A DNA stretch of 59,407 nt, filler included, from Fonticula-like sp. SCN 57-25 (lineage: Eukaryota), in the NCBI GenBank assembly GCA_001724245.1. It is 5 parts of 5 records of this genome, joined end to end, with 100 filler letters (N's around TTAATTAATTAA, not from the genome) between each part and the next. Parts side by side here need not be neighbours in the genome. Positions count along the whole stretch, not along the records: positions 11,041 to 21,976 come from MEDX01000211.1; 4 more parts are not named here. One strand, given 5' to 3'. The notes below the pieces were generated by a model. It was given only the letters and a program-made list of their open reading frames with translations, searched no databases and was not told the origin of the DNA. Below, one piece after another: positions 11,041 to 55,263 of this stretch. Within the stretch, counting starts at the first letter, position 1, and each line of letters starts with the position of its first letter. The translations under genes were made by a program, and so were the position numbers.

Positions 11041-11046
11041 CCCGCA

Positions 11047-12192
11047 ATGCGGGGGGAGGGGGGCGGCGCTAAACGCTTGTCCGAGATAGCTTTACGGTAC
11101 AAGATGCGGGACGCCGCACAGTGGCTCACTTCCGCACGAGGCGTGGAGCATTGCGGCCGGCGTCTGGCCAATCCGATGGACCGGTTTTCGGTATCCCTTC
11201 GGGTGCATGTCGGGACGGGGCGGCCGAGCTTCGGGGGCCTCGCGCGCTGTAACTCCATCTGGGAATGCCCGGTCTGCGCCCCGCGCGTCCAGGCCGGGCG
11301 CGCGGAGGAGCTGCGGGAGCTCAATGCCGCGCACGTGGCGGCCGGGGGCGCGCTCTACATGGCGACGCTCACCCTCCCACATAACGAGGGGGACGCGCTC
11401 CGGCCGCTCCGCGTGCACGTCGCGAAGGCCTGGAGCGCGATCAAGAGCGGCGCGCCCTGGCAGCGATGGAAAGCCCGACTCGGCCTGGTGGGCGATGTGC
11501 GCGCCCTCGAAGTGACTCACGGGCCGAACGGCTGGCACCCGCACTTGCACGCCGCGCTCTACACGCTCGCCGGCGTCGACGACGGGACGCTCGAACAATT
11601 CGAAGAATGGCTCTGGCTCCGCTGGTGCGCGGTGCTCCAGCGTCGGACACGCGCGGCCGGCCGGGTCTACCGGATGCCGTCGCGTGAGCATGGCGTGCGG
11701 GTCGAACCGCTACGCCAGGCCGATTACCTGGCGAAGATGGGGCTGGCGCACGAAACCTCGTCGTCCTGGACGAAAGAGGGGCGCGCCGGGCATCGGACGC
11801 CGATGCAGATCCTGCGCGATATCGCGTTAGGCGCGGGCGATCCCGAGCGCCGACAGGCCGATATCTCGCTCTGGCGACACTACGCGCGTGCCATGAAGGG
11901 GGCGCGCCAACTCATCTACTCGCGCGGGCTCCGGGCGCGCTATGCGTTAGGCGATCCCCTGGAGGATGCCGAGCTCCCGGACACGCAAGACGACCTCGAA
12001 GGGCTGTCGGACGCCGAGCATGAGACGGTTTACAGCTTCGACGCGCGCGAGTGGGATGATATCCTCGCCGGGGGCGTCGGCGTGCGGGTGCGCTTGCTCG
12101 CGGTCCCCCTGCGGGTCGAACGCGCCCTATGGCAAGATGCGGTGCTCAAGATCCTCGACGCGGCGCGCGGGCTCCCTGCCGTGCCGTTCTAG
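11047..12192 (+). CDS. rep: HUH rolling-circle replication initiator, pC194/pIJ101 (Rep_1) family
   Basis: Zn-ribbon CNSIWECPVC, motif I ATLTLPH, motif II EVTHGPNGWHPHLH, motif III DYLAK, and C-terminal RTPMQIL...W..Y....KG.RQL..SRGLR. Confidence 0.92.
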   Translation: MRGEGGGAKRLSEIALRYKMRDAAQWLTSARGVEHCGRRLANPMDRFSVSLRVHVGTGRPSFGGLARCNSIWECPVCAPRVQAGRAEELRELNAAHVAAGGALYMATLTLPHNEGDALRPLRVHVAKAWSAIKSGAPWQRWKARLGLVGDVRALEVTHGPNGWHPHLHAALYTLAGVDDGTLEQFEEWLWLRWCAVLQRRTRAAGRVYRMPSREHGVRVEPLRQADYLAKMGLAHETSSSWTKEGRAGHRTPMQILRDIALGAGDPERRQADISLWRHYARAMKGARQLIYSRGLRARYALGDPLEDAELPDTQDDLEGLSDAEHETVYSFDAREWDDILAGGVGVRVRLLAVPLRVERALWQDAVLKILDAARGLPAVPF

Positions 12193-12241
12193 CGGCGCGT
12201 GCGGCGCTGCGCTCTCTCACTCCCCTCACGATCCCCTCACG

Positions 12242-12910
12242 ATGCCTGACGAGACTGTACCCCCGATGCTCGAGCTCCCCGCCCTCGCCGGCGACGGGCC
12301 GAACGTCACGGACGCCCTGGCCGCGCTCGATCCCAATCCCGACCCGCTCCCCGAGGGCGACGCCGCGACGCCGGCGAGCGTCCCCGAGGGCGGGCCGCCC
12401 GCGCCCCCAGGGGATGCGCCGAAGCGCGGGCGCGGGCGTCCCCCGGCCGAGCTCTGGAGCGAGCGGAAAATCTCCCGCGCCTCGCGCGCCGAGCTCAAAG
12501 CGCGCGTCAAGGCGCTCCAGGAGCGCGCGCCAAGCGCGCCGGCGATCGAGGGACCGGCCGCGCCCGACCCCGCGGATGCGCCGCCCCCGCCCCCCCTCGA
12601 CCCGGCCGAGCTCGCGGCCCCCCTCGCGCTCACGTTCCGCACGTTAGGCGGATTGCTCGCCCTCGCGTACGGCGATGCCGTGCGGCTGACCGAGGACGAG
12701 GCCACGACGTTAGGCGCGGCCTGGGCGCCGCTCGCCGCGAAGTACGCCGGCCAGGGGGGCGCATGGATGGAGTGGGCGGTGCCGATCCTGACGACGGCCG
12801 GCGTCGCGCTGCCCAAGGTGCACGCCTACCGGGACGCGCAACGCTTGGCGGAAGCGGCCCCGGCGACGGCGGCCGAGCTCCCGCCCCCACTTCGGGGGCC
12901 GGATGCCTAA
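12242..12910 (+). CDS. Phage protein with Pro-rich N-terminus, AT-hook and C-terminal hydrophobic helices
   Basis: In-frame ATG at 12242 of ORF 11966-12910; KRGRGRP motif; hydrophobic LALTFRTLGGLLALAYG and WAVPILTTAGVAL; overlaps the ATPase start. Confidence 0.65.
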   Translation: MPDETVPPMLELPALAGDGPNVTDALAALDPNPDPLPEGDAATPASVPEGGPPAPPGDAPKRGRGRPPAELWSERKISRASRAELKARVKALQERAPSAPAIEGPAAPDPADAPPPPPLDPAELAAPLALTFRTLGGLLALAYGDAVRLTEDEATTLGAAWAPLAAKYAGQGGAWMEWAVPILTTAGVALPKVHAYRDAQRLAEAAPATAAELPPPLRGPDA

Positions 12911-13607
12911 CGGCGTCCCCCGCGACATCCCCTCGACGCGCGTGTTCGTGTCGGGGGCGACGGGCTCCGGCAAGTCGCATTTCATCCGCGCGCGCATCAT
13001 GCCCCGGGTGCCGCGCGCGGTCTATGTCGATTTCGTCGGCGAGTGGGAGCGGCGGCGCGCCGAGCTCCGGGGGCGCGTCGCCCTCGCCTATAGTGTGCAC
13101 GATGCGCGCACGCGCCTCGCCGAGCTCGCCGGCGTGCGAGAGTGGTCGCTCATCGTCCAGATCGACCCGAGCGAATTCGCCGAAATGGCGCGTCTCCTGG
13201 TGCCGCCGCGCTTCACGGATGCGACGCCGGTCTATGCGCGCGCGGTCGGGGGCGTCGCGCTGGTCTGTGACGAGCTCGACCTGCTCGCCCCGCATAACGC
13301 GCCCCCCGACGTGCTCGCGCTCTGGCGGCGCGGCCGGCATGTCGGGCTGTCGATCTACGCCGCGACGCAGATGCCGTCAGCGGTGCACCCGACCGTGCGG
13401 GGCATGTCGCGCTACCTCGTGCTGTGCCAGATGCACGAAGTGAACGCCATCAACTACTTTCGCGCGACGGTGCCGCCGAACGTCCTCGATCGCCTAACGG
13501 GGCTCCCGCCGCATGAAGCGATCGTGTTTGACGCGCACAGCCGGCGCGCGTGGCACCTGAATAAGCGCGCGCGTGTTCTATGGGATTCCGCGCGAGACGC
13601 CGAATAA
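12903..13607 (+). CDS. FtsK/HerA-superfamily genome packaging ATPase (A32/P9-like)
   Basis: Walker A GATGSGKS, Walker B LVCDELD, arginine-finger/sensor RRGRHVGLSIYAATQ; 234 aa stand-alone ATPase next to the capsid gene. Confidence 0.88.
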   Translation: MPNGVPRDIPSTRVFVSGATGSGKSHFIRARIMPRVPRAVYVDFVGEWERRRAELRGRVALAYSVHDARTRLAELAGVREWSLIVQIDPSEFAEMARLLVPPRFTDATPVYARAVGGVALVCDELDLLAPHNAPPDVLALWRRGRHVGLSIYAATQMPSAVHPTVRGMSRYLVLCQMHEVNAINYFRATVPPNVLDRLTGLPPHEAIVFDAHSRRAWHLNKRARVLWDSARDAE

Positions 13608-13721
13608 TGGGGAGTTACGGCACGCCTACTTGACGGCGCGCCCCGCGACGTGTTAGGCATGACCCCGAGTGCTCGCCGCTCGGGGTTTCCCGTTTCCTCT
13701 CTCGCTCTGGAGTCGTTAGGT

Positions 13722-13856
13722 ATGCAGGATCTTGCGCCGAAGTCGCCCGTTGACCTCAAGAACGTCGGGGCCGTCATCGGGTTCGCCCTGGCGGTGGCCG
13801 TGACGGTCGCTCTCCTCAACCGGGTCGGCTTCGCGAAGAAGCTGATCGCGGGCTAA
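13722..13856 (+). CDS. 44-aa single-pass membrane protein preceding the capsid gene
   Basis: GGAG at 13709-13712 before ATG 13722; TM VGAVIGFALAVAVTVALL. Confidence 0.65.
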   Translation: MQDLAPKSPVDLKNVGAVIGFALAVAVTVALLNRVGFAKKLIAG

Positions 13857-13872
13857 CCCGGAGCGCCCGCAC

Positions 13873-14880
13873 ATGCTGCGACAGGCCATCGCGCCCCTGG
13901 CGAACATCGCCGCGATCACGGGGCAGAAAGCAGTCACCGACATGCGCAACGGGATGCGCACGCTCGGGGTGATGATCCGAATCGTGTGCGACGTGACTAT
14001 CTCGGTCGCGGCCGTCACGGCGATTCGCAACGGCGGCTCGGTCCTCGCCCTCGTCGATGCGGTGGGGATCACGGAAAACGGCGTCGACAAGGTGCTGTTC
14101 AATGGACGCATGGCGGGGTTTGTCGGGCGCGTCAACTCGGTGGTAGATACGCCGAGCCGCACGCGCCTAACGTCGACGGCGCAGGGCGTGACGACGCTGG
14201 ACGAGACGATCTTCCTCCCCTTCGGGTCGGCGTGGCAAATCAACGCCGGCGACTCCGCGTTCGTGGAGCGCGACCCGCGCGCCTCGCTCCAGGTGTTCGT
14301 GAACTGGAATCCGGCCATCGGGAAGCTGGTGACGGTCGGCGGCGCAACCGTGGCGTTCGGAAACCCGACGATCACGGTGGAACAGGTCTACGACGACGAG
14401 CGCCAGCAGAAGCGGCCGCTGTTCCTCCCGTACTACCGCGAACAGTCCTTCATCGTCGCGGGCGCCGGCCAGCAACCGCCGATGTACCTCAAAACGTCGC
14501 GGTGGATTCGCGGGCTCGCGATCCAGCAGGACTCGGACGTGGGCGAGGTGTCGGACATCATCACCAACGTCATCTTGCGCGGCGACAACCGCGACATCAT
14601 CGCGCCCCCGGGGGCGTCGGTGGCGCGCCTCGCGCGGCTCGGCGAGGCGTTCAACAACGCCAAGGGCAGCAACGATGCGGGGTACCTGTGGCTCCCCTTC
14701 ACGCATGGGGGCCGGCTCAGCAACTCGATCTCCCCCGTGAACGACTCGAACATGCGCCTGGAGTTCACCGCCCAACCAACGGGAGCGGCGGGCGCAACCT
14801 CGTCCATCATCCGCGTCGGGCTCCTGGAGCTCGAACGGGTCGGCGGGCTCACGGCGGACGCGCTCGCGTTCAACGCCTAA
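13873..14880 (+). CDS. Putative double-jelly-roll major capsid protein
   Basis: 335 aa, beta-strand rich, no TM, two roughly equal halves. IFLPF in the first half and GYLWLPFTHGGRLSNSI...NMRLEF in the second resemble prokaryotic DJR capsid proteins. GGAG RBS; follows the A32-like ATPase. Confidence 0.72.
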   Translation: MLRQAIAPLANIAAITGQKAVTDMRNGMRTLGVMIRIVCDVTISVAAVTAIRNGGSVLALVDAVGITENGVDKVLFNGRMAGFVGRVNSVVDTPSRTRLTSTAQGVTTLDETIFLPFGSAWQINAGDSAFVERDPRASLQVFVNWNPAIGKLVTVGGATVAFGNPTITVEQVYDDERQQKRPLFLPYYREQSFIVAGAGQQPPMYLKTSRWIRGLAIQQDSDVGEVSDIITNVILRGDNRDIIAPPGASVARLARLGEAFNNAKGSNDAGYLWLPFTHGGRLSNSISPVNDSNMRLEFTAQPTGAAGATSSIIRVGLLELERVGGLTADALAFNA

Positions 14881-14895
14881 CGCCTAACGGCGTAC

Positions 14896-15004
14896 GCCCC
14901 GCGTCTCGGGGCTCTGCCGCCTCACGGTGGCGCTCGAATACCCCAACAAGGGGGGGAAGCTCTGCCGGCGCGGTGGGGGCCGGCATCTTCCCACCCCTAC
15001 GGGG
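14896..15004 (+). other. Intergenic cluster of five consecutive hairpins after the capsid gene
   Basis: GCCCCG/CGGGGC; GCCGCC/GGTGGC; CCCC/GGGG; GGGAAG..TGCCGGC/GCCGGCA..CTTCCC; CCCC/GGGG. Confidence 0.5.
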
Positions 15005-15029
15005 CCTCTCCTCTCTCCCTCGCTGACTC

Positions 15030-15473
15030 ATGGCCGCCGCCGCCATCATCGCCGCAAGCTCGCAGATCATTTCCGGGGTGCAATCGCTGTCGGGTGGCAA
15101 CAACAAGGACCCCGAACGGCTCGCCGCGAATAGCGACGCCTATGCCCGGGCGCAGGGGGGCGACGCGAACGCGCTCGCGTTCTTGAAGCAACGCACCGGG
15201 GAGTATGGCATCGCCAACGTCCCCGGATATGGGCAGATCGGCGGATGGGCGACCGCGACCGCCAAGGCGGACGCCAAGGCCAAGTACAACGCGCTCACGA
15301 CGGCCGCCAGCGTCAACACGGCGATCGCCTCGGCCGGGGAACAGGTGCGCGACGTGGCGCTCTCCGCTGGCTATGACGTGCACCCGACCGTTGGCGGGAT
15401 GAAGACCGAGCATCTTGTCATGCTCGCCGGCGTCGCGGTGGTGGTGTTCCTCTACTTCCGCAAGGGGCGTTAG
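15030..15473 (+). CDS. Virion membrane protein candidate with C-terminal TM
   Basis: Ala/Gly-rich 147 aa ending LVMLAGVAVVVFLYFRKGR. Confidence 0.7.
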   Translation: MAAAAIIAASSQIISGVQSLSGGNNKDPERLAANSDAYARAQGGDANALAFLKQRTGEYGIANVPGYGQIGGWATATAKADAKAKYNALTTAASVNTAIASAGEQVRDVALSAGYDVHPTVGGMKTEHLVMLAGVAVVVFLYFRKGR

Positions 15474-15476
15474 GCA

Positions 15477-16211
15477 ATGGGCGTGCTATACGACATCGCA
15501 ACCGATCCCCTCGCAATCCTGTGGGGATGGGCGACGTACATCGAGAACGAGCTCTTGCCGAGGAACCGGGCCAAGCTGAACGCCTGGGTCACGGAAGCGC
15601 GCGCGGCCGGGCTGTATGAAGGGACGATCATCGCCGCAGTCCTCGGTCCTTGGAACGCTTGGGATGCCGCCAACGCCGACCTGGCCGCGATCGCGATCCC
15701 GAACGAAATGAAGCGCATTCAGGCGGGCGGCGCGCCGGGCAACCTCGATGCGTTCAAGTGGACGTTTCCCCCCGCGCTTCCTGACATTTCTACGCTCCTG
15801 GCGAAGCAAGGCGGGGCGCTCGCCGGGTCGGCGCAATACACGGCGGCGCTGTCGCCGCAAGCGGCGCCCGCGCCGCCCGCGATCCCGGCCGCCGTCCTCG
15901 CGGACCCGACGCCATCGCTGCAATCCGTCATCAACAACATGTCCCCCGAGCTCCGCCCGGGTGCCACGCCGCAAGGCGCGCCGCTCGATCCCCTGGGGAG
16001 CGCCGGCGTCCTCGGCGATGCGCCCCAATCGGGGAGCCTCGGGGCCAGCGGCAATTCAGGGGCGCCCTCGCTGAGCTCCCCTGCGGGGCCGGCGGATCCC
16101 CTGGACGCCGGCGCCTCGGTCGGGGCGTCCCTCGCGACGCTGGACGGCTGGCCGCCGTGGCTGTGGCTGGCGGTGCTCGTCGGCGCGGCCCTCGTCTTCG
16201 GCCGGCGTTAG
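15477..16211 (+). CDS. Virion membrane protein candidate with Pro/Ala/Ser-rich linker and C-terminal TM
   Basis: 244 aa ending WPPWLWLAVLVGAALVFGRR. Confidence 0.7.
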   Translation: MGVLYDIATDPLAILWGWATYIENELLPRNRAKLNAWVTEARAAGLYEGTIIAAVLGPWNAWDAANADLAAIAIPNEMKRIQAGGAPGNLDAFKWTFPPALPDISTLLAKQGGALAGSAQYTAALSPQAAPAPPAIPAAVLADPTPSLQSVINNMSPELRPGATPQGAPLDPLGSAGVLGDAPQSGSLGASGNSGAPSLSSPAGPADPLDAGASVGASLATLDGWPPWLWLAVLVGAALVFGRR

Positions 16212-16214
16212 GCG

Positions 16215-16463
16215 ATGCCCTGCGGCTGTCGTGCTGCGACCGGCGCGCCGGCCAGCCCCCCGCCCTCAGTGGTGGGGGCGCCGGCGAGCGCCGGCTATCC
16301 CCTCCCCTCTCCCGCTGCCCCTAGCGTCGCGCCTATGCCCTCGGTGCAAACCCTCCCCGGCGTGACCATTACGGCCGACGCGCCGACGTCCCGAACGCTG
16401 CCCCCGTGGCTCTGGCTCGCGCTGGCCGCGCTCGCCGGGTATCTCGCGGCGAGGGGGCGCTAA
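16215..16463 (+). CDS. Small Pro-rich membrane protein
   Basis: 82 aa ending LPPWLWLALAALAGYLAARGR; TAATG overlap with the next gene. Confidence 0.65.
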   Translation: MPCGCRAATGAPASPPPSVVGAPASAGYPLPSPAAPSVAPMPSVQTLPGVTITADAPTSRTLPPWLWLALAALAGYLAARGR

Positions 16464-16705
16464 TGGTACCGCGCGAGGGCGTCCCGCCCAATCTGCTGCG
16501 CTATCTCGTCGTAGCGACGGCGGTGTGCTATGTCGGGTTGCGCGTGATCGAGGCGCTACGCCTGGCGCGCGCGACGCCGGCCGAGGACCCGACGCCGGCC
16601 GAGGACCCCACGCCGGTGGAGGACCCCACGCCGGCCGAGGACCCCACGCCGGCCGAGGACCCCACGCCGGCCGAGGACCCCACGCCGGCCGAGGATGACG
16701 CATGA
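16463..16705 (+). CDS. 80-aa membrane protein with acidic TPAEDP repeat tail
   Basis: ATG 16463 in a TAATG overlap; TM YLVVATAVCYVGL; ATGA overlap with the next gene. Confidence 0.65.
   Translation: MVPREGVPPNLLRYLVVATAVCYVGLRVIEALRLARATPAEDPTPAEDPTPVEDPTPAEDPTPAEDPTPAEDPTPAEDDA
16574..16696 (+). repeat. 18-bp coding tandem repeat, about 7 copies (ACGCCGGCCGAGGACCCC)
   Basis: Read directly; encodes (TPAEDP)n with one TPVEDP variant. Confidence 0.95.
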
Positions 16706-17259
16706 TCCGCTACACGAATCTCACGGCGAGCTCGTTGCCGGCACCTAACGACGTCTGGCGCGTCACGGTGCGGCGCTCGGGGGAGCTCGCCCGCGTGGGC
16801 CTCGAAATCCTGACGCTCTCGCTCTGGGATACGTCGGTCGCGCGCATCGCCGAGGATTGGGCCGTGCGCGTGCACTCGGCGGGCGTCGGCGTGCTGCGCG
16901 CGGAACCCGTCATCGACGAGAAAGGCGGGCTGTTCGTCGTCGATATGCAGTTTGACAGCAGTATTCCCCTGGTCCCCGCCTCGCGGATCGTCGCAACATG
17001 GGAAGACTGGATCCCCAATACCGAGGTGATCGCGGTCGAGCGGGTCAAAGCGACCGAGCGCGACGGCGCGGGCGCCCAGGCGGGCCAGGCGCGCGCGTTA
17101 GGCGCGGGCGCTGACATCATCGCCGCGGATTCGATCGTGCCCAAGATCGCCGACGCGGGCACCGGACTCGTGAAGGGCATCGGCACCGGCGCGCTGCTGC
17201 TCGGCATCGCCGCGCTGGTCTTCGCCGGCTTGCTCCTCGAGAAACGGCTCAAGTCATGA
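16702..17259 (+). CDS. Phage protein with C-terminal TM
   Basis: 185 aa ending GALLLGIAALVFAGLLLEKR; coupled overlaps on both sides. Confidence 0.65.
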   Translation: MIRYTNLTASSLPAPNDVWRVTVRRSGELARVGLEILTLSLWDTSVARIAEDWAVRVHSAGVGVLRAEPVIDEKGGLFVVDMQFDSSIPLVPASRIVATWEDWIPNTEVIAVERVKATERDGAGAQAGQARALGAGADIIAADSIVPKIADAGTGLVKGIGTGALLLGIAALVFAGLLLEKRLKS

Positions 17260-17447
17260 CGTGGCCGCCGCTGTTGAAGGTGATGGCGCCCCTCGCGCTC
17301 CGCGACGTCGCGCGACAGGTCGAGACGGTCGGCGCGGATGCAATGGCCGGGCAGATCGTCGCGGCCGTGGATGCGATCGTGACGCCCGGCGAGCGCCGCG
17401 CGTTAGGCGCGCTCGCGTCTGCCCTCGCCGCGCGGTGGTCGCCATGA
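17256..17447 (+). CDS. Hypothetical 63-aa phage protein
   Basis: ATGA overlaps at both ends fill the gap exactly. Confidence 0.55.
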   Translation: MTWPPLLKVMAPLALRDVARQVETVGADAMAGQIVAAVDAIVTPGERRALGALASALAARWSP

Positions 17448-17950
17448 AGCTCACGGAACATTTCACCGCCGAGGAAATCGGGTGGGCGCAGATCCCCGCG
17501 GATCTACGCCCGAACGCGCTCGCGACGCTCGCGCTCCTGGAGACGTTCCGGCGCGTCGTGGGCTCGCGCGTGCAGGTGACATCGCTCTGGCGGAGTGGCG
17601 ATCGCAACGCCGCGGTCGGGGGCGTCCCCGCCTCGCAACACCTGGACGCGACGGCGGCCGACGTGCAGACGCTGGATGTCCCCTACGACGAGGCGTGGCG
17701 TCGGGCGCGGGAGTCGGTCGAGCTCCGCCAGGCGATCGGGCAACTGATCGGCTATGCGAGAGAGACGCATTTTCATATTGCGCTTCCCGTGCGCGGCAAG
17801 CGTGGGGAAGTGCTCTGGCAGTCGGGCGGGGAATATGCCGTGGTGTCGCCCTCGTTAGGTGCGCCGGACCTGCTGCGCTTCATCCCGGCCGATCGCCGCG
17901 CGCTGGTGGCCGCGCTCGCGGTGGCGGGCATCGTCATTCTGGGGGACTAA
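17444..17950 (+). CDS. Peptidase M15 (M15_3-type) peptidoglycan hydrolase with C-terminal membrane anchor
   Basis: MKLTEHFTAEE; VTSLWRS...NAAVGG..SQHLDATAAD (SxH-x6-D); HFH; ends ALVAALAVAGIVIL; ATG 17444. Confidence 0.85.
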   Translation: MKLTEHFTAEEIGWAQIPADLRPNALATLALLETFRRVVGSRVQVTSLWRSGDRNAAVGGVPASQHLDATAADVQTLDVPYDEAWRRARESVELRQAIGQLIGYARETHFHIALPVRGKRGEVLWQSGGEYAVVSPSLGAPDLLRFIPADRRALVAALAVAGIVILGD

Positions 17951-18261
17951 TGGGGCCGAGTTATCGCATTCTGACGTTTGACCTCACCCTCGCGCGTGAT
18001 CGCGTGCTGGTGTCGCAGGTGGCGCCGGGCGCGCGTTATACCGCCGTGAAGGTGCTCGAATGCCCCTCCGGCGCGGGCGTGGAGCTCGCCTTTGGGGCGA
18101 GCGCCGAGAATGTGCCGGCGGTCCTCAATCGGGAGTTCTCCTGGCTGGATGCGTGCGGGCACCCGTTCGGGGCCGATGAAGGGCTGTTACTCACGCACCC
18201 GGCGGGCGCGGGCACGCTGAAACTGCTGGTCGCGTTCGAGAACGCGGTCAGCGTCACCTAA
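17950..18261 (+). CDS. 103-aa beta-rich soluble protein, candidate single-jelly-roll penton
   Basis: ATG 17950 in a TAATG overlap; alternating hydrophobic strands; sits before the spike candidate. Function inferred from size and context. Confidence 0.45.
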   Translation: MGPSYRILTFDLTLARDRVLVSQVAPGARYTAVKVLECPSGAGVELAFGASAENVPAVLNREFSWLDACGHPFGADEGLLLTHPAGAGTLKLLVAFENAVSVT

Positions 18262-18276
18262 CGCCTAACGCTCGCC

Positions 18277-19053
18277 ATGCGCATTCTCGACCCCTCGCGC
18301 GGAAGTCTGCTCGACACGCTGCTGTTCGAAGCGACGACCGACCTCAACGGCACGCAAGCGCCGACGAACATTGCGGGCGTCTACTCGCTCCTCGCCGGGC
18401 GCGGCGCGCTGACGGGCGGACCGGCCGCCAACTTCTGGGGCGCGGTCGGGGCGCCAGCCGTGGTGTACGACGCGGCGCGCGGGCGCCGACTCATCGAAAT
18501 CGTCTCCAATGCCGGCTCGCGCCAGGTGATTCACGGCGGGTGGGGCGCATCCTTCGGCGTCGATTTCGCGGCGGTCGGCGATCCCCAGTGGGCGCTGCTG
18601 CGGCCCATGCGGCGCTATACCTGGCTCCTCCCGGTGGCGGCGCCCGTGCGCGGGGGCGTGATCGTCAATTGCGGGACGGGCGCGACGAACGGGCTCCTAG
18701 ACACGTTAGGCACCGACCCATTCTTCGGGTGGTCATCAGATCCCGCGATCAACGGCGGGCGCTGGACGGTGCGCTACCGCCGTACGGCGGGCGGGGGCAG
18801 TACGACGGCCGACGATTCGGGGGTGGCGCTCGATGCCACCTGGCATATCCTCGGCGTGCGCTATACCGAGGGCGCGCGCCCCACGCTCGAAGCACTGATG
18901 GACGGCCGCACCGTGGCGAAACTCGTGGGCCGGGCCGCGCTACCGGACACGATCGCCAACAATGCGTACCGCCTCGGCCTCGGGATGCCACCCGGCGCGG
19001 GGACGACGGTACGCTGCGACGATGCGGTGTACCGCATAGAAACGGTGGAGTAA
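18277..19053 (+). CDS. Candidate spike/receptor-binding protein (ConA/LamG-like C-terminal half)
   Basis: 258 aa, Gly/Trp and beta rich; DATWHILGVRY...ALMDG resembles the lectin-fold WHhv...lyvDG motif. Confidence 0.5.
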   Translation: MRILDPSRGSLLDTLLFEATTDLNGTQAPTNIAGVYSLLAGRGALTGGPAANFWGAVGAPAVVYDAARGRRLIEIVSNAGSRQVIHGGWGASFGVDFAAVGDPQWALLRPMRRYTWLLPVAAPVRGGVIVNCGTGATNGLLDTLGTDPFFGWSSDPAINGGRWTVRYRRTAGGGSTTADDSGVALDATWHILGVRYTEGARPTLEALMDGRTVAKLVGRAALPDTIANNAYRLGLGMPPGAGTTVRCDDAVYRIETVE

Positions 19054-19253
19054 TGCGATTCCTGAACGGCTTCAAGACGGCGTTAGGCGGGTTGGGGCTC
19101 CTGGTGACGGCGCTTAACGACTCGCTGCACGTGCTGCCGGATACCTGGCGGCCCTACGTCGTGGGCGCCTCGGCGGTGCTGACCGCGTTAGGCGTGATCC
19201 ACAAGGCCGAGAAGCGGCAAGAGGGCAAGGCGACGCCGGCTGCGGGGCGCTGA
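19053..19253 (+). CDS. Holin-like 66-aa protein with two TM segments
   Basis: MRFLNGFKTALGGLGLLVTAL...YVVGASAVLTALGVI followed by a charged tail. Confidence 0.55.
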   Translation: MRFLNGFKTALGGLGLLVTALNDSLHVLPDTWRPYVVGASAVLTALGVIHKAEKRQEGKATPAAGR

Positions 19254-19417
19254 TGTGGGCGCGGGTCGCGGACACGCTGGTCGGGCTCATGCTCGGCGGG
19301 CTGATGGCGACGGCGGGCTCGTATTGGATGCTCGGCCGGTCCGTCGTTAGGCTCGAAGTGGAGGTCGTGGCGCTCCGCCGCGACCTGGACCGACTCCTGG
19401 GGAGGGACGACGCATGA
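19253..19417 (+). CDS. 54-aa TM plus coiled-coil protein (not in the ORF track), possible lysis accessory
   Basis: TGATG and ATGA overlaps; MWARVADTLVGLMLGGLMATAGSYWMLGRSVVRLEVEVVALRRDLDRLLGRDDA. Confidence 0.6.
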   Translation: MWARVADTLVGLMLGGLMATAGSYWMLGRSVVRLEVEVVALRRDLDRLLGRDDA

Positions 19418-19830
19418 AAAGCTCGGGATGGCTCGCGCTGGCGGTGCTCGCCGGCTGGTGGTGGCTCTCGCGCCGCGCGGCGCCGCTGACGCAAGCACCG
19501 GCGACGACGCCGGCCGCCTCGGGGGGCGCGTCCGGGGGCGCGTCCGGGGGCGCGTCGCCCGTCCTCGCGGTGGCGCCGGACGCGGTGGTCTACGTCGCGA
19601 CCCCCGAGGGGGGATACCTCGCGACGGGGGACGACGTGGCGCGGCGCGCCCAATCGGCCGGCGAGCTCGGGGACCCGACCGCCTGGCGCCCGCCCGAAGG
19701 CCACTTGCCACCCGACCCGCAACGCGTGTGGTCGGAGCTCGTGCGCGCCGAGGACGCGGGGGCGGTGCCTGATCCCTGGCGGGACGCGCTGGTGCTCGAC
19801 TACGCCGCCGGGCGGCTGGCGCAGTTATAG
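19414..19830 (+). CDS. Protein with N-terminal TM and GGAS linker
   Basis: MKSSGWLALAVLAGWWWL; (SGGA)3 linker. Confidence 0.6.
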   Translation: MKSSGWLALAVLAGWWWLSRRAAPLTQAPATTPAASGGASGGASGGASPVLAVAPDAVVYVATPEGGYLATGDDVARRAQSAGELGDPTAWRPPEGHLPPDPQRVWSELVRAEDAGAVPDPWRDALVLDYAAGRLAQL

Positions 19831-19859
19831 GGCGAGACACCCGATAACAACCCGAAAGG

Positions 19860-19888
19860 TTGCGGCATCGGGGGCGACTCGTCATACT
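19860..19888 (+). promoter_or_regulatory. Putative sigma70-type promoter
   Basis: TTGCGG-N17-CATACT upstream of GAGAGG RBS and ATG 19930. Confidence 0.4.
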
Positions 19889-19929
19889 CTCGCACGCGGT
19901 ACCCCCACCTGAGACGAGAGGATATCAAG

Positions 19930-20106
19930 ATGCTGCTGCATACCGTGACGTACTCATGCGGGACTCCCCAGGAGCGCACGACCACGATTCGCAGGGCGCG
20001 CCGCCTGACGTACGACGGGTGCGCCCGCATTATTGCGGCGAGTCTGGGCGTGCCGCCGCGCGCGGTCGCGGTGATCCGGGTGGACGTCGCCACTGACACC
20101 CGCTGA
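19930..20106 (+). CDS. 58-aa hypothetical protein (not in the ORF track)
   Basis: GAGAGG RBS then MLLHTVTYSCGTPQERTTTIRRARRLTYDGCARII... Confidence 0.5.
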   Translation: MLLHTVTYSCGTPQERTTTIRRARRLTYDGCARIIAASLGVPPRAVAVIRVDVATDTR

Positions 20107-20119
20107 GCGAGGCCACCCT

Positions 20120-20398
20120 ATGCGCGCGCTCTTTATTCAGTCGCAGCACGGCCCCCACCGCTGCTCCCTCCGCTACGACGACGAGGCGGGCCGGCGCGTC
20201 GAGCGGGACTTTTTCGCGCCCCCAGGCGGCGGGTACGTGCGCGAGGACTGGAGCAATCCCCGCCAGGTCTGCGACCGGCTCGGCTCGGCCGGCGCGACGC
20301 TGGTGTGGGACCCGGCGAGCGGTCCCCTGGTCGAGCTGATCCGGCGCGAGTGGCGGGCGATGCGGCGCGCCGAACGGACTCGGCGGGAGCGTTGGTAG
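20120..20398 (+). CDS. 92-aa hypothetical phage protein
   Basis: GAGG before ATG; protein-like composition. Confidence 0.55.
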   Translation: MRALFIQSQHGPHRCSLRYDDEAGRRVERDFFAPPGGGYVREDWSNPRQVCDRLGSAGATLVWDPASGPLVELIRREWRAMRRAERTRRERW

Positions 20399-20613
20399 GT
20401 GTCAAACAAAATGCCACCCCCTAACGAGAGAGCGGCGGTAAGTGCCGAAATGGCAACGAGATAACACCTATTATGCGCAATTGCTTCGGACTCACTAGGC
20501 GGGAGTTTCCCCCCGCCTAGCAAGCGGAGACGACGGGTTGGCGCCCGTCCCTCCATCACTCCCCGCCGACCGGGACGGAACCCCGTTAGGCGGTACAATC
20601 GAGAGAACAGGCC

Positions 20614-21090
20614 ATGTCACGACATGCCCCCCTCCGCCCGCGCGACTGTAACGCGCTAGGCGGCGCTGTAGAATACCGTCACACTGTCGCCGAGGGCAAC
20701 ACTCGCCCTCGCCCCGTCGGGGCCGCTAGCGGTCGATTAGGGCCGTCCCGCTACGCGCTGGCGCCGGCCGCCGCTCCCACATTCGCCGGCTGGCTCGCCG
20801 GGCTCCCCTGGTACGCCTGGGCGGCGATGGTCGGCGCGCTCTGCGTCGGCGCGCTGGCCGGTGGGCTGTACGCCTGGCACGACGCTGAGCGGTCCCTCTA
20901 CCTCGGCCAGTCGCCGGCGCGCGCCTCGATCCGCGCGAGGATTGCGCGGCTCCGCTCGCACTTCGCCCGGATGCGGGCCGATGATCCCCGGCGCGCTCCC
21001 GACGTCTGGGGCGAGCTCCGGGGGCTGGAATCCGACCTCCTCGACCTCGCGCCCCCCTCCGCCCGGGTGGCGGACGAGAGGGCGCTGTGA
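20614..21090 (+). CDS. Hypothetical membrane protein
   Basis: TM WYAWAAMVGALCVGALAGGLYAW; overlaps the next start. Confidence 0.5.
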   Translation: MSRHAPLRPRDCNALGGAVEYRHTVAEGNTRPRPVGAASGRLGPSRYALAPAAAPTFAGWLAGLPWYAWAAMVGALCVGALAGGLYAWHDAERSLYLGQSPARASIRARIARLRSHFARMRADDPRRAPDVWGELRGLESDLLDLAPPSARVADERAL

Positions 21091-21647
21091 TGGGCGTCCC
21101 CTCCCCTACGGGCGCCCTGGCCGTCGTCTCCGGCGATGCGCGTCCCCTCCGCTATCAGACGGCCGGCACGCTGCGCCAGGCGCTCCGCTGGACGCGCGAG
21201 GACCTGCAATCCGGGACGGCGCGCGTCGCAATCAAGGGCGACGACCTGACGCCACTCCTGGCCGCGCTCGCCGACGTCGGCCGGCGCTTCGCCGACGCGG
21301 CGACGGTCGAGCTCTCCCGCTACGAGGTGGGTTTCTCGCGGGAGCATATCGGCTTGGTGGCCGAGCTCGAGGCGCGCGCCCCCCCGCATTGCGCCGGTGG
21401 CCGCCTGGCGCGGGGGGGCCGAGTGACGCGCGCCCAACTAGCCCACGTGATGCGGTCGCGCGCCGAGGCGATCGCCGGCGAACCGTGCACCCTCGGGTGC
21501 GTGACGCCGGATCTCTGGACGTTTCGTTCTGCGAGCGGGTGCACGGTGCACGTGTGGCGCGAGGGCGACGCGGTCCTCCTCCCGCCCTGGCTCCGCCGCC
21601 CCGCGCCTCACGCGCCCCGCGCCCGCACGACGCCGGGGGCATCATGA
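21087..21647 (+). CDS. Hypothetical phage protein
   Basis: Coupled overlaps (GTGATG, ATGA); 186 aa. Confidence 0.5.
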   Translation: MMGVPSPTGALAVVSGDARPLRYQTAGTLRQALRWTREDLQSGTARVAIKGDDLTPLLAALADVGRRFADAATVELSRYEVGFSREHIGLVAELEARAPPHCAGGRLARGGRVTRAQLAHVMRSRAEAIAGEPCTLGCVTPDLWTFRSASGCTVHVWREGDAVLLPPWLRRPAPHAPRARTTPGAS

Positions 21648-21922
21648 CCCGGCGGGACACTGATACGGCCCCCGTTGCTCCTAATCCGGGCGCGGGGGCA
21701 TCGGCGCGGTGGGATGCGGCCTCGGCCCTCGCGCGGGAATATCGCTCGCTAGAGGGCGCGCTAGGGGCGGCGCTGCGCGTCTCGCGCGTCTCCGGGCTGC
21801 TGATTGCCGTGGCGCGCGTCGTCCCAGAGCGCCCGGCGTGGGTGCTCCGGGAGCTCGACCCGATCACCGGGGAGCTCCCGCCCGGGTGCGTGGCCGAGGT
21901 CCGGTATCGCGACGAGTCGTGA
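21644..21922 (+). CDS. 92-aa hypothetical phage protein
   Basis: ATG 21644 in an ATGA overlap; C-terminal part of ORF 20861-21922. Confidence 0.5.
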   Translation: MTRRDTDTAPVAPNPGAGASARWDAASALAREYRSLEGALGAALRVSRVSGLLIAVARVVPERPAWVLRELDPITGELPPGCVAEVRYRDES

Positions 21923-21976
21923 TCACCGCCCCCTCTCGGAAAGCTAAGAGTTATCCGACCCCCCCCCCGCAATGCG

Positions 21977-40183: not shown

Positions 40184-40950
40184 TCAAATCTTGTCGAGCT
40201 TTGGCGACACAATGACCGGGTTCGCCTTTGCCAGCTCGTCCCGCCCTTTCGACTTGTAGTCAAACGTGCAGTTGTGCTGGTCAGAGTAGCGGTGGTTGTT
40301 GCAAAAGAACTGGTCGCAGCGGCACTTTACGCTCGTGAGGCCGAGCTTCTTATTGCACATGGCGCAGCGGAGTGAGCTGGACTTGTCGGGCGAGGTGCCT
40401 AACGAGGTGCCGGCGGTGGTGGCAGAGGAGGGCGAGGCGCCAGAGGGGGACGCGGCAAGGTCGGCGGCGGTGGAAGACGACCCAGGGGAGCGAATCGCAA
40501 TAGGCTCAGAGGCTAAGAGGGAAGAATGTCAGAAAAAGTGCACAAAAATGGACGCAAATCATATCAAAAGTGGATACAAATCATGTCAAAATGGATATAA
40601 ACCATATCAAAATGTAAATAAATCATATCAAATGTACATCAACAGAGACCAGTATCAATGTACACACATATCAAAAACTACCTTTTAAGCATGTTTTCAA
40701 GCAATATAATCACCCAAGTAACACATAAACATTTACATATCATATGCCCACCCATATATTTCTTCTCTTTCGTACCCTTTGGCGGCGACAGTAAGCTCGT
40801 TGTCGCCGGCACCGGCGCCTGCGCCACCGACGCCACATTATTCTTCTTGGCGCACACCGAGCAGTACCCCGTCACGGCATCGCCGTAGAACGAGCAGCCG
40901 GGCCCGCGGCAGAACGGGCGCTGGGCGCCGCTATCCTGAGGCTGACTCAT
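40184..40950 (-). CDS. A20/AN1 zinc-finger protein (ZFAND5/6-like), spliced
   Basis: C..GCSFYG..TGYCSVC (A20); CAMCNKKLGL..KCRC..FC..HRYSDQHNCTFDYK and KANPVIVSPKLDKI read on the minus strand. Confidence 0.85.
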
Positions 40951-54851: not shown

Positions 54852-55263
54852 TACGTCGGCCGCTCAAAAGGTAGCCCGGCAGGCGCCACGAGTGCTCCTA
54901 TGATATTTTTTTTAAAAATGTTTGCCATTTTTTGATGCTGTTGTTTTGCATTGGTACGCGTGTCCTTGCCAAGAGACTCTATATTCATTTTATTCTTTGN
55001 TTTTATTCTTTGCGGGCCTGTTATGGCTTCGAACTGATATTTCTCATTCCTGTATGATAATTTGTATATCACAGTACCATATCATATTTTTCCTTTTTTA
55101 ATGTAGTACTCGAACATGATGGCAGTATTCATACCGGTATCAAATCCGCACCGGACGGTCATGCTGGGGTATTGCTATACGCATCCGATACGCAGTTTCG
55201 AAACGCGCAAAAAAGTCGGCCCCAGAATCTGCCAATCTTGTCCTTGACACCTCATCACACAGG

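Follow-up and report, generated by a model that had tools for sequence, protein, structure and literature searches.

A heptamer iterated through a small circular phage genome is a probable signature of its Gemmatimonadaceae host lineage

A circular tailless phage genome and its genes

The window analysed here is the whole stretch of 59,407 nt, a composite in which the piece from 11041 to 21976 is flanked by N/TTAATTAATTAA spacers. This piece is the complete circular genome of a tailless, PRD1/PM2-like double jelly-roll phage with rolling-circle replication. In contigs from three other runs position 21966 continues directly into 11041, and the genome is spanned in circular permutation by contigs of 10,904 and 10,789 nt, which indicates circularity; the ends of the piece have CCCGCAATGCG in common. 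Close variants were found in bioreactor and activated-sludge metagenomes, and the sequence itself probably derives from a bioreactor metagenome run. The features are listed below, where "word" denotes the heptamer CGTTAGG or its complement CCTAACG, and L-numbers denote related loci.

11041..21976, no strand: complete circular phage genome, 10,936 nt, ~71% GC, with all 24 word copies (contig evidence)
11047..12192, +: rolling-circle replication initiator, Rep_1 family (Pfam PF01446, phrog_11698, tblastn)
12242..12910, +: gene without assigned function, start uncertain, TAA stop inside a word copy (homologues in L003, L004, L008, L009)
12903..13607, +: P-loop packaging ATPase, FtsK/Zot-like (phrog_2666, Pfam, homologues)
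13873..14880, +: major capsid protein (MCP), double jelly-roll (AlphaFold model, PDB structure matches)
15030..15473, +: 147-aa protein with hydrophobic C-terminus (homologues only in word-rich L018 and L019)
17261..17950, +: endolysin, Peptidase_M15_3 (Pfam E 5.3e-12; phrog_894 endolysin E 6.6e-12)
17953..18261, +: conserved ~100-aa protein, TAA stop inside a word copy (homologues in relatives)
18277..19053, +: 258-aa beta-rich protein (homologues only in L018 and L019, 35-39% identity)

Matches to a capsid protein, a packaging ATPase, Rep and an M15 lysin bear out the proposal of the first-pass annotation that this contig is a phage. Rep matches PF01446 (E 1.2e-8; 35.2 bits, cut-off 33.2) and phrog_11698 (E 3.7e-64), and by tblastn shares 27-34% identity with Rep of Propionibacterium phage B5 and Pseudomonas phage PMBT54. 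The ATPase, which has homologues in nine of ten related loci, matches phrog_2666 "terminase large subunit" (E 4.7e-19); its AAA_16 and Zot matches are weak. The AlphaFold model of the MCP (pLDDT 89.4, pTM 0.87) finds its best PDB matches in PRD1 P3 (E 3.5e-15, TM 0.67), the STIV MCP and PM2 P2, and each of the 83 MCP homologues lies on a contig of at most 15.3 kb. Within ORF 17482-18261, the C-terminal part matches ~100-aa proteins of L018, L014 and L008. The 258-aa protein has no Pfam or PHROG match and probably serves a structural or host-recognition role. Scanning 20 phage ORFs against Pfam and PHROG gave no match to DNA-binding or methylase families and none to an integrase family. With respect to a phage-encoded reader of the word, the two genes exclusive to word-rich phages look structural.

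Copies of the word and their chance expectation

The window holds 26 exact matches to the word, of which 24 (15 CGTTAGG on the + strand and 9 CCTAACG on the - strand) fall inside the phage and two, at 40398 and 53969, in the 48,272 nt of the other four pieces. Nineteen of the 24 phage copies extend to the 8-mer CGTTAGGC and 15 to CGTTAGGCG. The individual copies are as follows.

11825..11831, +: 8-mer, in Rep, GCG-TTA-GGC (Ala-Leu-Gly)
11945..11951, +: 8-mer, in Rep, GCG-TTA-GGC
12642..12648, +: 8-mer, ACG-TTA-GGC (Thr-Leu-Gly)
12708..12714, +: 8-mer, ACG-TTA-GGC
12906..12912, -: 8-mer; TAA stop of upstream gene and ATPase codons 2-3 (Pro-Asn)
13493..13499, -: 8-mer, in ATPase, CGC-CTA-ACG (Arg-Leu-Thr)
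13714..13720, +: 8th base T, non-coding, 1 nt upstream of ATG at 13722
14166..14172, -: 8-mer, in MCP, CGC-CTA-ACG
14876..14882, -: 8-mer; provides the MCP TAA stop
14883..14889, -: 8-mer, non-coding, tandem with copy 14876 (7-nt period)
15468..15474, +: 8-mer; CGT-TAG is a stop, next gene begins 3 nt on
16206..16212, +: 8-mer; CGT-TAG is a stop, next gene begins 3 nt on
16744..16750, -: 8th base T, CCT-AAC-GAC (Pro-Asn-Asp)
17096..17102, +: 8-mer, GCG-TTA-GGC
17401..17407, +: 8-mer, in lysin, CGC-GTT-AGG (Arg-Val-Arg)
17853..17859, +: 8th base T, in lysin, TCG-TTA-GGT
18257..18263, -: 8th base T; TAA stop of gene 17953-18261
18264..18270, -: 8-mer, non-coding, tandem with copy 18257, upstream of ATG 18277
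18704..18710, +: 8-mer, ACG-TTA-GGC
19081..19087, +: 8-mer, between called genes
19186..19192, +: 8-mer, between called genes
19345..19351, +: 8-mer, TAG at 19348-19350, immediately before ORF 19351-19830
20420..20426, -: 8th base G, in 216-nt intergenic gap; pairs with 20584 in predicted single-strand fold
20584..20590, +: 8-mer, in the same 216-nt gap as 20420

Markov models of the piece, each simulated 1000 times, predict 0.8 copies at order 1 (maximum 4), 1.0 at order 2 (maximum 5) and, at order 3, where tetramers from the word itself contaminate the model, 5.7 (maximum 15), against 24 observed. These results agree with the first-pass annotation, in which every listed coordinate of the 24 copies is exact, as are the 19 extensions and the "only two" copies in ~48 kb of other contigs, and which expected about one copy by chance. 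No 8-mer of the piece ranks above CGTTAGGC, and no 9-mer above CGCCTAACG. Synonymous codons were also shuffled 500 times within the 15 called phage genes, which gave a mean of 11.4 heptamers, inclusive of 9 non-coding or frozen copies beyond reach of the shuffle, and a maximum of 15 versus 24 observed; the 8-mer gave a mean of 8.0 and a maximum of 11 versus 19. Because the shuffle stays below the observed counts, the enrichment does not vanish under a codon-preserving null, the outcome that had been named as counting against it. Thirteen of the 24 copies are in frame within genes, and all the frames named earlier are seen (TTA-GGC Leu-Gly, CCT-AAC Pro-Asn, CTA-ACG Leu-Thr, GTT-AGG Val-Arg, and stops). 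The codon shuffle and the multiple reading frames support a DNA-level signal rather than a peptide motif, as was suggested. Among the 16 GTTRRRY variants, only GTTAGGC (20) and GTTAGGT (4) are enriched in the phage, with 0-2 of each of the others. In word-carrying phages the copies are spaced randomly rather than evenly (coefficient of variation ~1).

The word in Gemmatimonadaceae and in other phages

CGTTAGG is the core of YGTTAGGC(G), the word that is hyper-abundant throughout the genomes of some Gemmatimonadaceae; our literature search found no publication on it. The Gemmatimonadaceae MAG G001 contains the most, with 7,821 copies of CGTTAGGC versus 424 of the reversed-word control. Across 81 genomes of this family the 8-mer exceeds 2,000 copies in 8 and 400 in 24, and stays below 150 in 47; it exceeds 400 in one of 130 further genomes of the phylum. 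Two megaplasmid samples of Gemmatirosa kalamazoonensis carry 36 and 20 copies per 50 kb versus 0 for the control. The first-pass annotation had suggested that some Gemmatimonadota are rich in the word and had listed a host-genome signature among its options, and both ideas are upheld by these counts. One host sample holds 90 + and 107 - copies, with both strands mixed in each of 20 windows, and saturation is as high in the antisense Pro-Asn frame as in the sense Leu-Gly one; the word is non-polar and orientation-neutral in the host. Vsr was detected in 17 of the 81 genomes, for the most part word-poor ones, and in none of the 8 richest; RecC was detected in 6 of the 81 and likewise in none of the 8 richest. 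ComEC occurs in 76 of 81 genomes, including 8 of the 8 richest, which is compatible with uptake. Gemmatimonadota are not known to be naturally competent.

The phage carries the word much as the hosts do. In one host sample it is followed by C in 193 of 197 copies and then by G in 110 of 197; for the phage each count is 19 of 24. Among one-letter neighbours, enrichment is confined to TGTTAGGC, in hosts and phages, and CGTTAGGT, which amounts to 21-24% of the CGTTAGGC count in phages and to 10-25% of it in several rich hosts. The frame order Leu-Gly > Pro-Asn > Leu-Thr, Val-Arg is common to hosts (115, 47, 16 and 14 of 253 copies) and phage (8, 2, 2 and 1). Densities are 2.2 copies/kb in the phage, 1.9 in L018 and 5.0 in L019, and 0.40-1.72 in host samples. 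[SPTA]-Leu-Gly sites are written as the word in 7 of 11 cases in the phage and 16 of 17 in L019, and in 68/293, 27/92, 17/27 and 9/19 in hosts. The pressure for the word in phages is at least as great as in hosts.

Within the phage family, the genome in the window has 24 copies and its distant relatives L018 and L019 have 22 and 57; eight other long loci (10.9-15.7 kb) have 0-2. The tree places L018 and L019 as a sister pair within a group of word-poor members, with the window's phage as outgroup. The L019 capsid gene holds three words that are absent from the same codons in 9 relatives; one of these words needed a change from Leu-Leu-Arg to Ile-Leu-Thr, and copy positions in the capsid genes of the two sisters are not conserved. 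On these comparisons the word is neither inherited nor a trait of the phage lineage, and point substitutions have written the host word into phage genes and the junctions between them. It is also carried by three tailed (pro)phages of unrelated kinds, spanning 46, 49 and 30 kb (29 versus 8 for the control, 18 versus 0, and 15 versus 3); they were detected via a tandem word pair, so two copies in each reflect ascertainment. Their density is 0.37-0.63 copies/kb, and the small phages are 3-8 times denser. None of 54 candidate stretches from 185,579 species genomes was an integrated relative of the phage, and therefore the phage cannot simply have ridden in a chromosome.

What the word may mean, and known systems

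Since the phage carries the word on both strands, in host codon frames and at a density at least that of the host, we consider it a probable signature of the host lineage (probability about 0.9). The host, as inferred from the word, would be a word-rich member of the Gemmatimonadaceae. The word is read or written by something host-encoded and indifferent to orientation, and is not the phage's own signal. As to function, our tentative preference, at rather less than even odds, is that the word works like an uptake sequence, as a host "self-DNA" tag which the phage mimics. A putative host factor would bind the word as duplex DNA, a small phage would benefit from many copies, and free or concatemeric phage DNA could then be taken up or recombined as host DNA is, from which the rolling-circle Rep might rescue a circle. 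Counting against this reading are the random spacing in phages, the failure of ComEC to discriminate rich from poor genomes, the want of known competence in the phylum, the lack of an integrated relative among the 54 candidate stretches and the richness of phage DNA relative to host DNA; as to the host assignment, the other four pieces contain only 2 copies in 48 kb.

Other readings have to be weighed. A host nuclease or defence system might spare or halt on word-bearing DNA, as RecBCD does at Chi but without direction. Selection would then favour a copy every few hundred bases in a 10.9-kb phage, which is too small to accommodate anti-defence genes. Chi protects rolling-circle plasmids, and the Rep_1 mode makes linear intermediates; the density of L019 far above the host maximum, its nearly complete Leu-Gly sites, the non-synonymous gain of words and the excess of small over tailed phages all fit such protection. 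However, the host word lacks polarity, unlike Chi, RecC was not found in the 8 richest genomes and the reader is hypothetical; we rate this account as unlikely. Somewhat less likely still is a neutral drive, in which biased host repair or recombination converts near-cognates in any DNA replicating in the cell and a phage copied wholly by host enzymes merely equilibrates. In its favour, word, flanks and frames are shared by the host chromosome and megaplasmids, by proviruses and by phages of lytic type, and no candidate reader appears in the ORFs scanned; the enriched neighbours are C-to-T variants at the word's two ends. Yet Vsr was not found in the 8 richest genomes, the word is asymmetric, no G. 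kalamazoonensis methylation motif matches it (m6A only, PMC3974934), and L019 is denser than every host sampled.

We regard a link to integrons as improbable. Here the copies would be IntI binding or crossover sites, or sites for an attC-handling factor, and the phage would use them to recombine, to integrate or to exchange modules. The 7-bp integron core GTTRRRY, which IntI cleaves between bases 1 and 2 (PMC8876359), accommodates the word, and two phage gene junctions read CGT-TAG-GCN-ATG, resembling the stop-in-core coupling described for cassettes (PMC8876359). Hairpins of ~108 nt adjoining intI in Gemmatimonadaceae end in G[T/C]CTAACG ... [C/T]GTTAG[A/G]C, so that the same extended 8-mer forms the ends of the integron attC sites of these bacteria. 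IntI scores above cut-off in 47 of 81 genomes versus 0 of 14 controls, in word-poor genomes of the phylum CGTTAGGC recurs on one strand every 0.5-1 kb, as in a cassette array, base pairing between copies 20420 and 20584 is predicted when the largest intergenic gap is folded (z -3.8 and -5.1), and the word adjoins three strain-level mosaic breakpoints. However, IntI does not track richness (5/8 richest, 9/16 intermediate, 5/10 low-intermediate, 28/47 poor), attC sites use GTTAGAC as often while the phage enriches only GTTAGGC and GTTAGGT, more than half of the copies are in frame inside genes, the inverted order 45-200 nt apart that attC needs holds only for 20420/20584, and the 20 scanned ORFs gave no match to an integrase family. 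A site recognised by a phage protein, for packaging or condensation as the first-pass annotation had offered, or for replication or transcription, would suit one small, dense genome and the two genes exclusive to the three word-rich phages. That reading is highly improbable and close to refuted: the eight relatives lack the word, hosts hold thousands of copies and unrelated tailed phages share it, the two exclusive proteins (C-terminally hydrophobic and beta-rich) have no DNA-binding signature, and copy positions in the sisters' capsid genes are not conserved.

Taken together, a phage of sludge and soil Gemmatimonadaceae carries its hosts' signature word, also the core of their integron recombination sites, about as densely as they do, or more so, which suggests that the reader of this unexplained word is of consequence to viruses as well. 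The analogies drawn earlier fare differently. HIP1 is not supported, since the Gemmatimonadaceae word is not palindromic, Vsr was not found in the 8 richest genomes, and none of the three motifs published for G. kalamazoonensis, a set limited to m6A, corresponds to it (PMC3974934). Neither is Chi, which acts directionally through RecBCD, whereas the word is non-polar and RecC was not found in the 8 richest genomes. Statistically, an uptake sequence remains the nearest parallel on the host side, but the likeness stops at the phage: according to PMC2397512, horizontally acquired DNA in a documented system contains very few DUS, whereas here phage DNA is as rich as host DNA or richer, which pure uptake with homologous-recombination drive does not predict.

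CGTTAGG in the phage genome

An exact-match search of the window recovered the 24 copies of CGTTAGG/CCTAACG (hereafter the word) that the first-pass annotation had counted in the phage genome, at the same coordinates, with 15 on the plus strand and nine on the minus strand. The phage genome is the piece at 11041-21976, which comprises 10,936 nt at ~71% GC and holds all 24 listed copies; the only two copies noticed elsewhere were confirmed as exact matches at 40398 and 53969, which brings the window total to 26. Within the phage genome, 19 copies extend to CGTTAGGC and 15 to CGTTAGGCG, where the conserved flank ends, and k-mer ranking placed CGTTAGGC at the top of the 8-mers and CGCCTAACG at the top of the 9-mers. 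The five pieces of the window are joined by N/TTAATTAATTAA spacers, and one single N occurs at 55000.

Simulations restricted to the phage genome yielded 0.8 copies under an order-1 Markov model and 1.0 under an order-2 model (maxima of 4 and 5, respectively, in 1000 runs), which agrees with the initial estimate that about one copy is expected by chance. An order-3 model, which is inflated by the word's own tetramers, expected 5.7 copies with a maximum of 15. When synonymous codons were shuffled 500 times within the 15 called genes, which cover 81% of the phage genome, the shuffled sequences contained 11.4 copies on average and 15 at most, compared with 24 observed; this average includes 9 copies that are non-coding or frozen and thus beyond the reach of the shuffle. 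Because the excess survives this codon-preserving null, we conclude that the enrichment is real and lies at the DNA level, as the first-pass annotation had claimed. Non-coding DNA makes up 19% of the phage genome yet contains 9 of the 24 copies, and five genes, which end at 12910, 14880, 15473, 16211 and 18261, take their stop codon from the word. The stops of the 15 called genes are TAA (7), TAG (5) and TGA (3), which is unusual at 71% GC, and at least four of them come from the word. Spacing of the word in the phages is random. Even spacing and a word-free 2.2-kb arc in the phage genome were both considered, and neither was significant (coefficient of variation 0.97; P = 0.15). Among strain variants of the phage, none of 40 listed differences (957 in total) falls inside a word, with 0.6 expected.

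Identity and relatives of the phage

The phage genome encodes the following features, along with several small proteins that are also on its plus strand.

Phage genome, plus strand: Rep_1 rolling-circle initiator (phrog_11698, E 3.7e-64; Pfam score 35.2 bits, cut-off 33.2)
Phage genome, plus strand: P-loop ATPase of the FtsK/HerA packaging type, adjoining the capsid gene (phrog_2666, E 4.7e-19; weak matches to Zot and AAA_16)
Phage genome, plus strand: 335-aa double jelly-roll major capsid protein (predicted structure)
Phage genome, plus strand: M15 endolysin (family-profile matches)

The 335-aa protein has 83 metagenomic homologues, every one of which lies on a contig of at most 15.3 kb. A structural model built with 34 of these homologues (pLDDT 89.4) found its best PDB matches in PRD1 P3 (E 3.5e-15, TM 0.67), the STIV MCP and PM2 P2, at ~10-12% identity to the solved chains, and this predicted fold identifies the protein as a double jelly-roll capsid protein. 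Near-identical DNA was found, among the matches listed, in 20 runs of 12 studies, which are mostly bioreactor, activated-sludge and wastewater metagenomes; the run that matches best, a bioreactor metagenome, probably gave rise to the sequence. Contigs from three other runs link 21966 to 11041, and the entire sequence is spanned, in circularly permuted form, by contigs of 10,904 and 10,789 nt. Taken together, these results show that the piece is a PM2/PRD1-like phage genome, circular and complete. The phage shares with the Corticoviridae (PM2) and small PRD1-like phages a circular genome of ~10-11 kb, a rolling-circle Rep, a double jelly-roll capsid and an FtsK-type ATPase. Unlike them, it belongs to an uncultured family, represented by the 83 metagenomic capsid proteins, and has no sequence-level relative in the phage collection, either by DNA or by capsid protein. 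Its Rep shows 27-34% identity to those of the filamentous Propionibacterium phage B5 and Pseudomonas phage PMBT54. Integrated relatives were found in none of 54 candidate stretches from 185,579 species genomes, and none in IMG/VR.

When the two ends are joined (21957-21976 with 11041-11060), they form a hairpin, CCCCCCGC-AAT-GCGGGGGG, directly upstream of the Rep gene, which from its sequence could be a double-strand origin or nick site; the assembly probably broke at these ends because of this hairpin. At 16602-16682, an 18-nt unit containing AGGACCCCA occurs five times in tandem (0.34 expected in the window), and contigs from two other metagenome runs (X2 and X4) lack 54 nt there, so that strains differ by three units.

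Relatives were retrieved as 22 metagenome loci using the capsid profile. Among the eleven genomes or loci of at least 10.9 kb, the word occurs 24 times in our phage, 22 times in the distant relative L018 and 57 times in the distant relative L019, while the other eight contain 0-2 copies. The copies divide between plus and minus strands as 15/9, 10/12 and 29/28, respectively. L018 and L019 are sisters, with capsids that are 74% identical, and are nested among word-poor members (52-63% identical), to all of which our phage is an outgroup at ~34% capsid identity. The three words within the capsid gene of L019 have no counterpart at the corresponding codons of nine relatives; two arose through synonymous or near-synonymous change, and one needed a change from Leu-Leu-Arg to Ile-Leu-Thr. 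This absence, together with the nesting of L018 and L019, indicates that the words arose in situ and recently, and did so independently in at least two branches. The word is not a trait of the phage lineage.

A reader of the word encoded by the phage was considered and rejected, as a scan of 20 phage ORFs returned no DNA-binding or methylase family and no candidate. The only genes common solely to our phage, L018 and L019 encode one protein whose C-terminus is hydrophobic and one that is beta-rich, for which a common host is a likelier explanation than a common DNA reader. We also rejected the possibility that other relatives use their own dialects of the word, based on CCGTTAC, which occurs 14-16 times in L004, L006 and L008, and GGGTTAG, which occurs 11 times in L017. 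Enrichment of CCCGTTAC was found in none of 81 Gemmatimonadaceae genomes. In L004, L006 and L008, CCGTTAC takes the form CCCGTTACC or ACCGTTACA, mostly arranged as pairs in tandem (period 8 nt) near contig ends, with a few internal copies. Because these tandem pairs cluster near contig ends, CCGTTAC is a different thing from the word and, judging from its arrangement, looks like iterons or operators.

The word in Gemmatimonadaceae and its saturation in phages

The first-pass annotation had proposed that the word could be a host-genome signature and had suggested that some Gemmatimonadota are rich in it. The genome G001, which is a Gemmatimonadaceae MAG according to the title of its locus L034, contains 7,821 copies of CGTTAGGC compared with 424 of the reversed control. 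Across 81 Gemmatimonadaceae genomes, the word exceeds 2,000 copies in 8 and 400 copies in 24 and remains below 150 in 47, whereas only one of 130 further genomes from the phylum exceeds 400. (Tallies of 81 genomes include the unpublished G012, G038 and G039; those of 151 genomes include the likewise unpublished G137 and G172. None of the conclusions depends on any single one of these.) Two megaplasmids of Gemmatirosa kalamazoonensis KBS708 carry 36 and 20 copies per 50 kb, with 0 for the control. These results bear out the host-signature proposal, and the suggestion about Gemmatimonadota holds for part of the family Gemmatimonadaceae. A literature search returned no relevant paper on the word, and the combination of Gemmatimonadetes and uptake sequences returned nothing on it.

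The word has similar surroundings in hosts and phages. In the host, the eighth base is C in 193 of 197 copies and the ninth is G in 110 of 197, and in the phage genome each of these bases is present in 19 of 24. The only enriched one-letter neighbors of the word are TGTTAGGC and CGTTAGGT. At position 8, the phages have T at 21-24% of the frequency of C, a ratio that ranges from below 1% to ~25% and higher in the hosts; a strict C at position 8 was considered as a difference between phage and host, but variation among hosts accounts for it. Host and phage also share the same order of frame preference, with Leu-Gly favored over Pro-Asn, followed by Leu-Thr and Val-Arg. The word is furthermore dispersed through three IMG/VR tailed (pro)phages that are unrelated to our phage, which were identified via tape-measure, minor-tail and terminase matches: word and control counts are 29 and 8 (46 kb), 18 and 0 (49 kb), and 15 and 3 (30 kb), of which 2 copies each reflect ascertainment because these elements were found through a tandem pair. 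Among the 116 IMG/VR loci returned, 10 contain at least 6 copies and 51 contain the ascertained pair alone.

Word enrichment across many phyla was rejected. A 16-mer scan had returned at least 120 loci, and among the matches listed were loci with 5-17 copies per 8 kb from Bacteroidota, Planctomycetota, Verrucomicrobiota, Thermomicrobiales and other groups. Later whole-genome counts were negative, with no genome-wide excess in the four genomes from the scan that were counted (G002-G005). These loci are local arrays, probably of integron cassettes or tandem heptamers. In G003 (a Thermomicrobiales MAG) and G005 (a Bacteroidota MAG), two to four tandem CGTTAGG heptamers face an inverted array ~100 nt away, in the order GTTAGGC and then GCCTAAC, on many contigs; together they make up a structured repeat element that differs from the genome-wide word.

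We compared the strength of the pressure on phages and hosts, which is summarized below.

Density of the word and share of word-compatible tripeptides written as the word
Phages, copies/kb: our phage 2.2; L018 1.9; L019 5.0
Hosts, copies/kb: G078 0.49 (400 kb); G. kalamazoonensis plasmids 0.72 and 0.40; G001 1.39 (71 kb); G013 1.72 (127 kb)
[SPTA]-Leu-Gly: L019 16/17; our phage 7/11; L018 2/2; hosts 68/293, 27/92, 17/27 and 9/19
Pro-Asn-x: L019 12/13; L018 8/9; our phage 2/7; hosts 42/100, 16/32, 7/9 and 20/23

These densities and shares indicate that the phages equal or exceed the richest sampled hosts in saturation, with L019 clearly above them. L019 also contains 17 word-compatible Leu-Gly and 13 Pro-Asn tripeptides, compared with 1-8 and 2-4 in word-poor relatives. 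Saturation is equally high in the antisense Pro-Asn and the sense Leu-Gly frames, so orientation relative to genes is irrelevant. On a 1.94-Mb host contig, 90 copies are on the plus strand and 107 on the minus strand, mixed within 20 windows of 20 kb. A replichore polarity of the type seen with Chi or KOPS was rejected, as apparent all-plus runs were an artefact of listing order and 400 kb showed mixed strands. We infer that the reader of the word is host-encoded and orientation-blind. Taken together, these results show that the word is a signature of word-rich Gemmatimonadaceae that the phage has adopted at host-like or higher saturation. They also assign, from sequence alone, an uncultured family of small membrane-type phages to the rarely cultivated Gemmatimonadaceae.

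Candidate functions of the word and comparison with known systems

We favor, at a probability of roughly 35-40%, a proposal in which the word would be an uptake-type self tag of the host that the phage mimics. The analogy with uptake sequences, which had been among the first suggestions, stands insofar as the host statistics resemble such a system and fails insofar as word density in the phage matches or exceeds that of its hosts. ComEC is present in 76 of the 81 Gemmatimonadaceae genomes and in all 8 of the richest, which does not discriminate between them. Because a non-integrated phage is saturated at or above the level of the hosts, the force behind the word acts on, or is exploited by, DNA that was never in a chromosome, and the classical picture of uptake drive does not predict such a phage. 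The same tag might instead serve for protection, which we consider unlikely, or the word might have spread by neutral drive, which seems less likely still. A signal specific to the phage is extremely improbable, and its own packaging or condensation site, as once suggested, is unsupported, given the 0-2 copies in eight relatives and the presence of the word in unrelated tailed (pro)phages.

A function linked to integron integrases also has to be weighed. The integron core site is given as GTTRRRY, with IntI crossover between bases 1 and 2, in a published account (PMC8876359), and GTTAGGC fits it directly. Beside intI in two Gemmatimonadaceae genomes, we found hairpins of ~108 nt (-43 to -53 kcal/mol) that end in G[T/C]CTAACG ... 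[C/T]GTTAG[A/G]C, the same extended 8-mer as the word. Of five attC sites that were aligned, four come from one homogeneous array. That the attC sites of the hosts terminate in this very 8-mer gives a concrete new lead to the reader of the word, and the occurrence of a TAG stop inside the core at gene junctions is a further likeness. Word-poor genomes of the phylum contain same-strand series of CGTTAGGC at intervals of 0.5-1 kb, as expected of cassette arrays, and such arrays explain why the 16-mer scan returned multi-copy loci from many phyla that lack genome-wide enrichment. The integron integrase TIGR02249 exceeds its curated cut-off in 47 of 81 Gemmatimonadaceae and in 0 of 14 control genomes, and chromosomal integrons are of very high prevalence in this family; G013 and G078 contain broken integrase copies. 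However, word richness does not track intI, whose carriers number 5 of 8 among the richest genomes, 9 of 16 among the intermediate, 5 of 10 among the low-intermediate and 28 of 47 among the poor, and only GTTAGGC (20) and GTTAGGT (4) among the 16 GTTRRRY variants are amplified in the phage genome. Unlike attC sites, the phage copies are mostly solitary and stand in frame within ordinary genes by point substitution. In a search for attC-type hairpins (R''-L''...L'-R') of ~60-140 nt, only the pair at 20420 and 20584 (171 nt) has the right order and distance, with a branched fold, and the remaining 22 copies are solitary or tandem. No integrase family was found among 20 scanned phage ORFs. An integrase-linked function is thus very unlikely in our view.

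Three weak hints favor such a link nonetheless. The pair at 20420 and 20584 lies in the largest intergenic gap (20399-20613) and forms the closing stem of the predicted fold (z -3.8 on the plus strand and -5.1 on the minus strand), inside which is a near-perfect hairpin of 15-16 bp, CTAGGCGGG...CCCGCCTAG. At 3849-4660 of L019, three consecutive units of 165-190 nt are each bracketed by 9-10 perfectly complementary bases that include the word, with strong predicted folds of -66 to -100 kcal/mol (z -3.6 to -6.2 relative to mononucleotide-shuffled sequences). These units have a period of ~310 nt, start with GCCTAACG, end with CGTTAGGC and overlap small ORFs. Finally, three strain-level breakpoints adjoin a word: at 15476, where 120 nt are swapped for 101 other letters in three runs; at 14161, which ends a block that has diverged between strains (14087-14161); and at 20420, which is a contig end. 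These could reflect recombination at words or words that simply serve as conserved anchors.

A broader reading, which we regard as quite improbable, is that the word is an attC R-box core that escaped genome-wide, such that cassette-recognizing machinery would have driven the 8-mer through the chromosomes, megaplasmids and phages of some lineages and rolling-circle phages would exploit it. This machinery would be either a receptor that takes up DNA selectively by sequence or a factor that is associated with an integrase and works on single-stranded DNA. Small rolling-circle phages would saturate themselves with the word and thereby be imported, rescued or recombined by it, and pairs of the word would flank small genes or intergenic regions in the manner of proto-attC stems. 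Natural transformation has been reported, in one account (PMC12614218), to feed integron recombination, and a shared specificity of uptake and attC is therefore conceivable. If true, the escape of an attC core would link integrons with natural transformation and phage entry and offer a route to the unsolved origin of gene cassettes. Because G. kalamazoonensis is cultured and word-rich, with a published genome and methylome, the question of the word is directly testable.

Among known systems, Chi (RecBCD/AddAB) and KOPS (FtsK) resemble the word as over-represented 8-mers, and it would be reasonable for a small rolling-circle replicon to accumulate the word so as to protect its linear intermediates. 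Unlike them, the word lacks strand polarity in the host and has about equal orientations in L018 and L019, and RecC (PF04257), which is present in 6 of 81 Gemmatimonadaceae genomes, is found in 0 of the 8 richest. HIP1 of cyanobacteria and the words of very-short-patch repair are likewise hyper-abundant and written through coding DNA. However, a word of that type would be expected to be a palindromic methylated site accompanied by a Vsr-type endonuclease, whereas the word is asymmetric, Vsr was found in 17 of 81 genomes and 0 of the 8 richest, and the G. kalamazoonensis methylome reports m6A only at RGATCY, ATGCAC and CCAGN7TCA (PMC3974934). Because of these strand, Vsr, RecC and methylome results, readings of the word as a Chi/KOPS-like, HIP1/VSP-like or methylation motif are unsupported, and the corresponding first-pass analogies to Chi and HIP1 were not upheld.

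Like the uptake sequences of Neisseriaceae (DUS) and Pasteurellaceae (USS), the word is short and asymmetric, occurs at ~0.4-1.7 copies/kb in the hosts on both strands without replichore polarity, is written into genes against codon preference and is limited to part of one family. In contrast to these systems, inverted terminator pairs are not the norm here, with one inverted pair in the phage genome. Horizontally acquired DNA in Neisseria is described as carrying very few DUS in one report (PMC2397512). Foreign DNA is thus word-poor in that system, whereas here the non-integrated phages contain 1.9-5.0 copies/kb compared with 0.40-1.72 in the hosts.
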